Notes under the pieces: model-generated
The model's database searches: none
What the model saw: the letters and a program-made list of their open reading frames with translations, nothing else
What the model was told of the DNA's origin: nothing
Position numbers and translations under genes: made by a program
Source: Savitreella phatthalungensis
Taxonomy: Eukaryota
Length of the DNA stretch: 64,000 nucleotides
Reading direction: 5' to 3'
NCBI GenBank assembly: GCA_051599415.1
Contig: AP039691.1
Coordinates: 248,001-312,000 of the forward strand
Shown here: piece after piece, positions 32,219 to 59,560 of the stretch
How positions within the stretch are numbered: position 1 is the first letter of the stretch
Layout: each line of letters begins with the position of its first letter

Positions 32219-32985
32219 ATGGTCCGCCAATCCGTTCTCAACGACTGCCTTAACAACATTGTCAACGCCGAGAAGGCCGGCAAGCGTCAGGTGCTCATCC
32301 GCCCATCCTCCAAGGTCATCATCAAGTTCCTTGAGGTGATGCAGAAGAACGGTAAGTCAAACAATGCCACCTTCCGTCATGTGTGACACGAGGCGAGAAA
32401 GGATCAAGAGAAGAACAATCGTTGATCGGGGAATCCGCTTGCTGTTCAACGCTCATAACCGGACTTGATAACTCGACGCGCTCCTTTCATCACTTCTGTG
32501 GGGCAACGTCGTTTAGCGTCTCGGGATATCTATCACCAGAGTTCGCGTTCTCCGGGTCGACAGCCTTCCTCTGCTTCGGCAAGATCCATGGCTGAGAGAC
32601 TATCGAATGTTCGCGGCACAGCTCCCACATCACGTCTTCACCTCTCTTTCCTTTTTCAAGTCCCTGTCGCTGCGCATAACAGAGGACATTTGCGTCTACA
32701 AACGATCAGTGACTGACATGAGTAGGCTACATCGGCGAGTTTGAGGAAGTCGACGACCACCGCTCCAACAAGATTGTCATCCAGCTCAACGGTCGTCTGA
32801 ACAAGTGCGGTGTCATCTCCCCTCGCTTCAACGTTCGCGTGAACGAGATCGAGAAGTGGGTCACCCAGCTCCTGCCTTCCCGTCAGGTCGGATTCATCGT
32901 CCTCACTACCTCGCGCGGCATCATGTCCCACGAGGAGGCCCGTGCAAAGCACTCTGGTGGCAAGGTCCTCGGATTCTTCTACTAG
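32219..32985 (+). CDS. RPS22: 40S ribosomal protein S22 (uS8/S15a); exons 32219-32351 and 32726-32985 (130 aa)
   Basis: [81 protein letters not shown]; 374-nt intron GTAAGT..ACTGAC..TAG. Confidence 0.97.
32458..32623 (+). ncRNA. Intronic box H/ACA snoRNA, snR44-like
   Basis: Hairpin 1: lower stem CCGGAC/GTCTCGG, pocket GATAACT + TTTA, upper stem CGACG/CGTCG; H-like box ATATCTA (32526-32532). Hairpin 2: lower stem GTTCGCG/CGCGGC, pocket TCTCCG + ATCGAA, stems GGTC/GACT and CAGCC/GGCTG; ACA at 32618-32620. Both pockets are complementary to conserved 18S rRNA motifs recalled from memory. Confidence 0.75.
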
Positions 32986-59038: not shown

Positions 59039-59395
59039 GGAGTTCGGCGCTTGAGGGATCGGAGAGGCTTGATTAGCAGGGCATGATGGGAGAATTGGTT
59101 GCGAGTGAGGATCGAGGTTTTCAAGGACGGAATGATTGAAGAAAGTGTGTGATCCGAGGAGAGAGCGTGTGTTGTGACGTTTGTGGTTTGAGCGGGGAAA
59201 GGGGACGAGGTGGTCTGAATGTGTGACAGGGTGTTACACTTTTACGTGTTTTAAGATCGAGTGTTCTGTCAGGGAGAAGGATAGGGAGAGGCTGATGCTC
59301 TGTACAATACGATGACGGAATAGGAGCGTGTGTGAGCTTATTGATCGGTGTAAGAGTGGTTATGAGATAGTGATCAGGGGAGGGACTGGATGAAG

Positions 59396-59560
59396 GGTGG
59401 ATGAATGTGAGAAGTTGTGTGTGAGTGTGTATGTGAGTGTGTATATGAGTGTGTATATGAGTATGAGTATGAGGATGAGGATGAGGGATGCTTGGCGTGT
59501 GAGTGTGCATATGCATGTGAGTGTGAGTGTACATGTGCATGTGAGTGTGAGTGTGAGTAA
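59396..59560. repeat. Degenerate GTGTGA/ATGAGT-type hexamer low-complexity tract
   Basis: gtgagtgtgtatgtgagtgtgtatatgagt..atgaggatgagg..gtgagtgtgagt; a similar tract lies at about 59775-59825. Confidence 0.85.

Follow-up and report, generated by a model that had tools for sequence, protein, structure and literature searches.

A divergent snR44 ortholog in the RPS22 intron of Savitreella phatthalungensis, with a probably exchanged second guide

The stretch of Savitreella phatthalungensis DNA analysed here (GenBank assembly GCA_051599415.1, contig AP039691.1, positions 248,001 to 312,000 of the forward strand; 64,000 nucleotides (nt), hereafter the window) contains, on the + strand at 32219–32985, the gene RPS22 for ribosomal protein uS8, both exons of which match Pfam Ribosomal_S8. 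The explanation favoured here, with moderate confidence, is that the RPS22 intron encodes a box H/ACA small nucleolar RNA (snoRNA) orthologous to snR44, with hairpin 1 keeping the equivalent of pseudouridine (psi) 106 of 18S ribosomal RNA (rRNA) as its target and hairpin 2 having a new 18S target. The snoRNA identity and the orthology to snR44 are held with high confidence; the specific new target of hairpin 2 is a more guarded prediction, read from the sequence, towards which we lean. The synteny of the host gene was observed directly, as were the match of pocket 1 to that of the family, the absence of the family's second pocket, and complementarity to genuine 18S; the second guide of this divergent ortholog has probably been swapped.

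As claimed by the first-pass annotation of this DNA, the RPS22 intron measures 374 nt and contains two pocketed hairpins ending in ACA; the coordinates agree with the sequence, and all the motifs that had been named (GATAACT, TTTA, ATATCTA, TCTCCG, ATCGAA, and ACA) are present where they had been placed. Folded separately, the two halves of 32458–32623 each form a lower stem, an internal loop, and an upper stem. The element thus shows the layout of the box H/ACA class—that is, hairpin, hinge, hairpin, and ACA—with pocket-to-box spacings of 14 and 16 nt, the 3′ end being an assumed one, and with an H box, ATATCTA, in the snR44-family form and not the strict ANANNA form.

The link between snR44 and RPS22 is old and already known, because published work places the guide of 18S psi106, snR44, in intron 2 of yeast RPS22B (PMC9045821; this and the other papers are cited from excerpts), which fits the metagenome relatives described here. 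These relatives were sought by searching metagenome contigs with the exon-2 protein, and 80 loci with 74–80% identity were kept. Fifty-six of them carry a long intron (182–372 nt) at the same phase-1 Gly45 codon, the position that the window intron also occupies, and these represent 48 distinct introns, every one of which was found to contain an snR44-like RNA, as expected from the old host-gene link proposed in the first-pass annotation. Simple motif anchors parse 46 of the 48 as two-hairpin RNAs of about 130–160 nt; the other two, in loci L015 and L045, match R1 (at 42 and 98 bits, respectively), a roughly calibrated covariance model built from a 44-sequence alignment (A1). A1 comprises 44 of the 46 parsed relatives, L042 and L079 having been omitted as near-copies of L030 and L071. 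The Rfam snR44 model (RF01262) matches the intron at E ≤ 1 in 15 of 18 sampled loci (best score, 47.7 bits), with its gathering score of 33 bits being reached in 12, and misses L012, L015, and L025. Among the remaining 24 loci, exon 1 was not found on the contig in five, an 80-nt intron occupies the position in four (two distinct), and no intron is present there in 15.

Hairpin 1 of the candidate matches the family consensus. The window carries TTGATAACT, TTTA, and ATATCTA in the family order, and the 3′ guide begins 14 nt before the hinge box, as it does in 40 of the 46 parsed relatives. Among the relatives, 34 introns have TGATAACT as the 5′ guide and 14 have TTTAACT or a variant of it; across A1 the 3′ guide is TTTAA, the lower stem is CG-rich, the A-N-A of the hinge box is invariant, and the A four positions later is nearly so. 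RNAalifold applied to A1 gave 13 pairs for hairpin 1, with compensatory changes in 10. Covariation across RPS22 introns, proposed earlier as a check, was therefore seen for hairpin 1 of the relatives. The earlier description of the H box held in part: ATATCTA does lie 14 nt on, but it is not non-canonical, because the relatives share its A-N-A-N-N-N-A positions and it is the normal form of this family.

The hairpin 1 pocket, TTGATAACT / TTTAG, was found to pair 8+5 with the ascomycete-like 18S fragments L084 and L097, with duplex energies of −6.9 and +0.7 kcal/mol; in this positive control, 7 of 2000 shuffled pockets matched rRNA equally well. The first-pass assignment of pocket 1 as the snR44-like 18S pocket is thus supported by guides, spacing, and hinge box shared with the relatives, and by the 18S pairing itself. 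Furthermore, when R1 was run on both strands of the window, a single match was returned, at 32459–32544 (11.5 bits; model positions 3–85 of 141), with E 0.6 over the window and 0.0035 when the search was confined to the intron. A search pattern derived solely from the relatives and made of TGATAACT, 25–50 nt, TTTA, 10 nt, and ANANNNA occurs once in the window (32466–32532) and in none of 100 shuffled sequences.

These results bear on the view that there is no snoRNA at all—that is, that a long intron happens to contain such hairpins and motifs by chance, or that they form part of a regulatory structure in it. Folding energies no better than those of shuffled sequences would be in keeping with that view, but the family pattern occurs only once in the window and in none of the shuffles, the one R1 match across the 128 kb of both strands lies precisely at the orthologous intron, and snR44 is present in all 48 distinct long orthologous introns, so that it appears hardly credible.

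Hairpin 2 departs from the family. The 44 aligned relatives show no variation in the 5′ guide CTTACA, the 3′ guide TTTA, or ACA, and in all 46 parsed relatives the 3′ guide begins exactly 14 nt before ACA. All 46 of these pockets pair best with one fungal 25S site, at position 2154 of contig L142 (approximately position 1051 of the large-subunit (LSU) rRNA), which is the U in CUUUAAA-U-A-UGUAAGA (25S context CUUUAAA-U-AUGUAAGA) and agrees with the LSU target reported for snR44 and for Nc ACA1 of Neurospora crassa. L142 is a 2.6-kb fungal-type 18S–5.8S–25S contig, found by pattern search in the assembly behind L084, in which Rfam reads the 3′ end of 18S, 5.8S, and the first 1484 nt of 25S, and the start of its 25S looks Pezizomycotina-like, a label that we assume. 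The family pocket of CTTACA and TTTA was not found in hairpin 2 of the window, CTTACA does not occur anywhere in the intron, and the alignment of R1 to the window ends at the hinge, at model position 85. That pocket 2 differs from that of snR44, as had been suggested, is thus seen from the invariance of both motifs in the relatives and their absence from the window.

The pocket found there instead, TTCTCCG / ATCGAAT, has complementarity to 18S. The scan for bipartite targets required a U with one unpaired base after it and uninterrupted pairing to either side, and it covered eight rRNA sequences, seven of which contain 18S (the ascomycete-like L084 and L097 and five other eukaryotes); eukaryote-type ribosomal DNA (rDNA) contigs were located in bacterial assemblies via an exact published small-subunit (SSU) rRNA primer site. 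The hairpin 2 pocket pairs 7+7 with 18S GUUCGAU-U-C-CGGAGAG in all seven, in keeping with the 18S match inferred in the first-pass annotation, and it does so through 12 Watson–Crick and 2 G-U pairs that abut the upper stem. This match scores 13 and the next best 11, and only 4 of 2000 composition-shuffled pockets reached the score on about 7 kb of rRNA. Its duplexes (−9.0 and −5.5 kcal/mol) are stronger than those of hairpin 1. Since the geometry of hairpin 2 is canonical, a pseudouridine is predicted at this site. The predicted target uridines of the two hairpins are 272–273 nt apart in L084 and L097, with that of hairpin 2 downstream, their contexts being UUAAA-U-CAGUUAUC for hairpin 1 and GUUCGAU-U-CCGGAGAG for hairpin 2. 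The hairpin 2 site lies in the broad-eukaryote SSU primer ATTAGGGTTCGATTCCGGAGAGG, which includes the motif TTCGATTCCGGAGA (PMC2916215, PMC10376359). The 18S motif UUCGAU-UC-CGGAGA, which had been named in the first-pass annotation, is therefore a real one, present in the published primer and in the ascomycete-like 18S fragments.

Loss of the family pocket could also reflect decay, with the lineage losing its intronic snoRNA, hairpin 2 having drifted from a 25S guide, and no stable or functional snoRNA remaining. Rfam fails on the window, the R1 score is very low, and related lineages have lost the snoRNA at this position (four loci with 80-nt introns and 15 without an intron). In addition, the nearest RPS22 relatives of the window are intronless: a protein tree built from 31 distinct full-length RPS22 sequences, omitting the loci with TTTAACT-type guides on account of their split exon 1, places the window (support 99/97) beside three intronless contigs of at most 82% identity, outside the GATAACT-type group. 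However, all functional elements of hairpin 1 are intact and correctly spaced, hairpin 2 retains its full layout of lower stem, pocket, upper stem, and ACA, a 14-bp bipartite rRNA match is not expected from random drift, and the intron, at 374 nt, has kept a length exceeded by only one of the 49 distinct long introns including that of the window. Such a relic is accordingly considered improbable.

A functional snR44 ortholog acting through hairpin 1 only is an unlikely but more substantial alternative. Hairpin 2 would then be structural, serving the assembly of the small nucleolar ribonucleoprotein (snoRNP), and its complementarity to 18S would be fortuitous; it would have no target, or one such as 5.8S, a small nuclear RNA, or the 3′ half of 25S. 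Single-guide H/ACA families are indeed common in fungi, 23 having been counted (PMC5824354), and the hairpin 2 pocket is known from one genome only. The shuffling result leaves chance a small probability, and when the register is moved by one base the pocket also pairs with 5.8S at L142:905 (context GGUA-U-U-CCGGGGGG), in a 5+8 arrangement that includes five G-U pairs. Yet that 5.8S alternative scores 10.5, compared with 13 for the 18S site, and would place its target 17 nt from ACA, whereas the 18S match, with its 12 Watson–Crick and 2 G-U pairs, abuts the upper stem, lies at a legal distance from ACA, leaves a single unpaired base after the target U, and forms stronger duplexes than the conserved hairpin 1 does.

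Several observations weigh against a swapped guide in a functional snR44 ortholog. The fold is no more stable than shuffled sequences, with z values of +0.34 for the whole element, −1.55 for hairpin 1, and +0.45 for hairpin 2, which means that thermodynamics alone proves nothing; such energies are usual for guide RNAs with open pockets. With Rfam, the whole window yielded no match at gathering scores, nor did 32300–32780 at E ≤ 10, so that a scan with the snR44 model, one of the checks proposed in the first-pass annotation, turned out negative, the 33 bits of RF01262 not being reached. The R1 score of 11.5 bits compares with 18.5–104 bits for seven matches in other loci and marks the window copy as very divergent. 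The spacing of 16 nt in hairpin 2 is at the upper edge of the pocket-to-box distance rule of 14 to 16 nt (PMC2780460), and the relatives are fixed at 14. The shuffling test was run on rRNA of other organisms, with a gap at about positions 420–1205 of fungal 18S and with 25S ending before its 3′ half. The metagenome contigs yielded no close relative of the window, the best protein identity being 82%, in contigs without this intron; the hairpin 2 pocket rests on one genome. Finally, no report of a pseudouridine at the 18S site was found in a literature search made by guessed position numbers only: among psi378, psi379, psi384, psi385, psi386, and psi433, an apparent match to the last (PMC6182160) proved to be 28S psi4331. 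The RNA-letter motif UUCGAUUCCGGAGA likewise had no occurrence in the literature text searched. Since it is uncertain which yeast number the new site bears, the search by psi number is weak evidence that the site is unreported.

In the mechanism favoured here, the snoRNA would be released from the spliced RPS22 intron and trimmed to roughly 32458–32623. Hairpin 1 with the hinge box would present the ancestral pocket and guide the 18S psi106-equivalent in UUAAA-U-C-AGUUAUCG, and hairpin 2 with ACA would present the new pocket and direct pseudouridine formation at the U of GUUCGAU-U-C-CGGAGAG, about 273 nt downstream. We infer that the RNA would be stable, assemble into a snoRNP, and modify either uridine. 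A fuller evolutionary account is offered tentatively, as a possibility that we hold with some doubt: the 3′ hairpin would have been replaced, a lineage-specific 18S pseudouridine would stand in place of the LSU site targeted by all other sampled fungi, and the LSU guide would have been lost or moved to another snoRNA, with the tail of the intron as a possible remnant.

Comparison with known systems places the RNA, by position and by hairpin 1, as an snR44 ortholog that fails two family tests, namely the Rfam score and the 25S pocket, and hence as a divergent variant. Saccharomyces cerevisiae snR44 guides 25S psi1056 as its LSU site. It shares with the window the host gene RPS22 and the two-hairpin H/ACA layout, and the hairpin 1 pocket in the RF01262 consensus, CUGAUAACU / UUUAAGUG, is the same as in the window; however, the consensus hairpin 2 pocket for 25S is UCUUACAC / GuUUAC, where the window has TTCTCCG / ATCGAAT, and the yeast RNA is longer (211 model positions) than that of the window (about 166 nt). 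Nc ACA1, a homolog of snR44 in N. crassa, is an intronic RNA of 136 nt that guides 18S psi105 and 26S psi1037 (PMC2780460). It resembles the window RNA in being an intron-encoded H/ACA RNA with its H-box pocket on 18S psi105, and the 34 GATAACT-type metagenome introns carry RNAs of similar size (about 130–160 nt); its ACA-box pocket, however, is directed at 26S psi1037, whereas that of the longer window RNA matches 18S. With human ACA36 (SNORA36), the counterpart for the 18S site of hairpin 1 (PMC2780460), only the target site is shared.

The closest evolutionary parallel is provided by snR189 and snR191, in which hairpin 1 and its target have been kept across Dikarya and the targets of hairpin 2 vary by lineage (PMC5824354). 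The pattern is the same as in the window, although these are other families, with other targets and not hosted by RPS22, and the main text of that paper does not mention snR44. Because snR189 and snR191 document it, target exchange in the second hairpin is not new as an event; the novelty lies in the family and the site concerned and in how complete the replacement is.

The snR44 gene in the RPS22 intron is among the oldest stable pairs of snoRNA and host gene in fungi, and in the window copy the pair survives while one of two guide functions has apparently been exchanged. If true, a pseudouridine not listed before would be added to the 18S 5′ domain, in a part of it that is conserved universally, and the case would provide a clean natural example of H/ACA guides gaining targets one hairpin at a time. 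Furthermore, since the curated Rfam models miss this copy, genome annotation in the lineage will under-call snoRNAs, and searching orthologous host introns recovers snoRNAs that these models miss. The features of the gene and the candidate snoRNA are collected in Table 1.

Table 1. Coordinates of the RPS22 gene, its intron, and the parts of the candidate snoRNA, as positions in the window
Feature	Position	Strand	Details and basis
RPS22 exon 1	32219–32351	+	44 codons and first base of Gly45; translation; Pfam Ribosomal_S8, E 3.3e-05
RPS22 intron, phase 1, 374 nt	32352–32725	+	5′ GTAAGT, CTGAC branch-site motif at 32713–32717, 3′ TAG; read from sequence
Candidate H/ACA snoRNA, about 166 nt, divergent snR44 ortholog	32458–32623	+	5′ end approximate; 3′ end assumed, set as ACA + 3
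Hairpin 1 lower stem, 5′ strand	32459–32464	+	Pairs with 32518–32524, one bulged base; minimum-free-energy fold; aligns to family lower stem
Hairpin 1 5′ guide TTGATAACT	32465–32473	+	8 bp with 18S AGUUAUCG; identical to relatives' consensus; target scan
Hairpin 1 upper stem and loop	32474–32511	+	CGACG/CGTCG and GCTCC/GGGGC; fold
Hairpin 1 3′ pocket TTTAGC	32512–32517	+	TTTAG forms 5 bp (one G-U) with 18S UUAAA directly 5′ of target U
Hairpin 1 lower stem, 3′ strand	32518–32524	+	Fold
H-type hinge box ATATCTA (A-N-A-N-N-N-A)	32526–32532	+	Begins 14 nt after upper stem; R1 alignment
Hairpin 2 lower stem, 5′ strand TCGCG	32543–32547	+	Pairs with 32612–32616; fold
Hairpin 2 5′ guide TTCTCCG	32548–32554	+	7 bp (6 Watson–Crick, 1 G-U) with 18S CGGAGAG; predicted duplex −9.0 kcal/mol
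Hairpin 2 upper stem and loop	32555–32601	+	GGTC/GACT closed by G-U pair (32555 with 32601), then CAGCC/GGCTG; fold and sequence
Hairpin 2 3′ pocket ATCGAATGTT	32602–32611	+	ATCGAAT forms 7 bp (6 Watson–Crick, 1 G-U) with 18S GUUCGAU; predicted duplex −5.5 kcal/mol
Hairpin 2 lower stem, 3′ strand CGCGG	32612–32616	+	One unpaired base separates it from ACA; fold
ACA box	32618–32620	+	16 nt after first 3′-guide base; 3 nt to proposed 3′ end; sequence, pattern match
Intron tail, ACA box to branch site	32624–32712	+	Unusually long; weak hairpin 32660–32687; second ACA 32698–32700; without H/ACA pocket geometry
RPS22 exon 2, stop codon included	32726–32985	+	YIGEFEEV...GFFY and stop; Pfam Ribosomal_S8, E 6.3e-10

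The distance from the ACA box to the 3′ splice site is 105 nt in the window, exceeding that in all 46 parsed relatives (median, 26.5; maximum, 86), in 21 of which a CTRAY branch-site motif begins within 5 nt of ACA. The intron tail might be a remnant of a displaced ancestral hairpin 2; R1 was found to have no match in it. A third H/ACA hairpin in this region (32624–32703) was considered and rejected: the fold is weak (−10.3 kcal/mol, z −0.96), and the tail hairpin, 10 nt away from the second ACA, lacks both pocket geometry and an R1 match. That second ACA sits 12 nt upstream of CTGAC. The tail also contains TCTTCAC at 32635–32641, one deletion away from the TCTTACAC of the relatives. TCTTACAC itself occurs once in the window, on the minus strand at 59348, a copy that was rejected as low-complexity DNA and not a snoRNA; positions 59380–59500 of the same strand form a low-complexity tract of ACACTCATAC-like repeats.

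With respect to the rRNA sources, at least 60 contigs (L081–L140 and L142) in bacterial and archaeal species genomes hold the exact pan-eukaryote 18S primer site, and this eukaryote-type rDNA is presumably contamination. The middle of 18S was not found in the bacterial assemblies that yielded rDNA contigs. Viral contigs gave no RPS22 relative, and the 119 pattern matches found in them share only chance similarity of 11–17 nt with the snoRNA.

Among the relatives, the short-intron loci L003–L006 have the 80-nt intron at the same position and contain no snoRNA, and R1 did not detect snR44 in either of the distinct short-intron loci to which it was applied (L003 and L006) or in the 15 intronless loci (L013, L014, L017, L018, L020, L024, L027, L029, L035, L038, L041, L046, L049, L052, and L077). 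Some of these intronless contigs may be transcripts instead of genomic DNA. Another lineage in which hairpin 2 is changing may be represented by L015, where the snR44 ortholog at positions 406–535, scored at 42 bits by R1 and missed by Rfam, has a hairpin 2 in which the ATCTTA guide segment is duplicated and the 3′ guide is altered.

The TTTAACT-type group (L001, L002, L008, L009, L011, L012, L016, L019, L022, L023, L025, L030, L036, and L042) carries an additional intron in exon 1, and its orthologs split the hairpin 1 pairing otherwise, with a shorter 5′ guide, TTTAACT, and a longer 3′ guide, TTTTAATGG. Many eukaryote 18S sequences have AGUUAUAG instead of AGUUAUCG at the hairpin 1 site, and guide and target may therefore have changed together.

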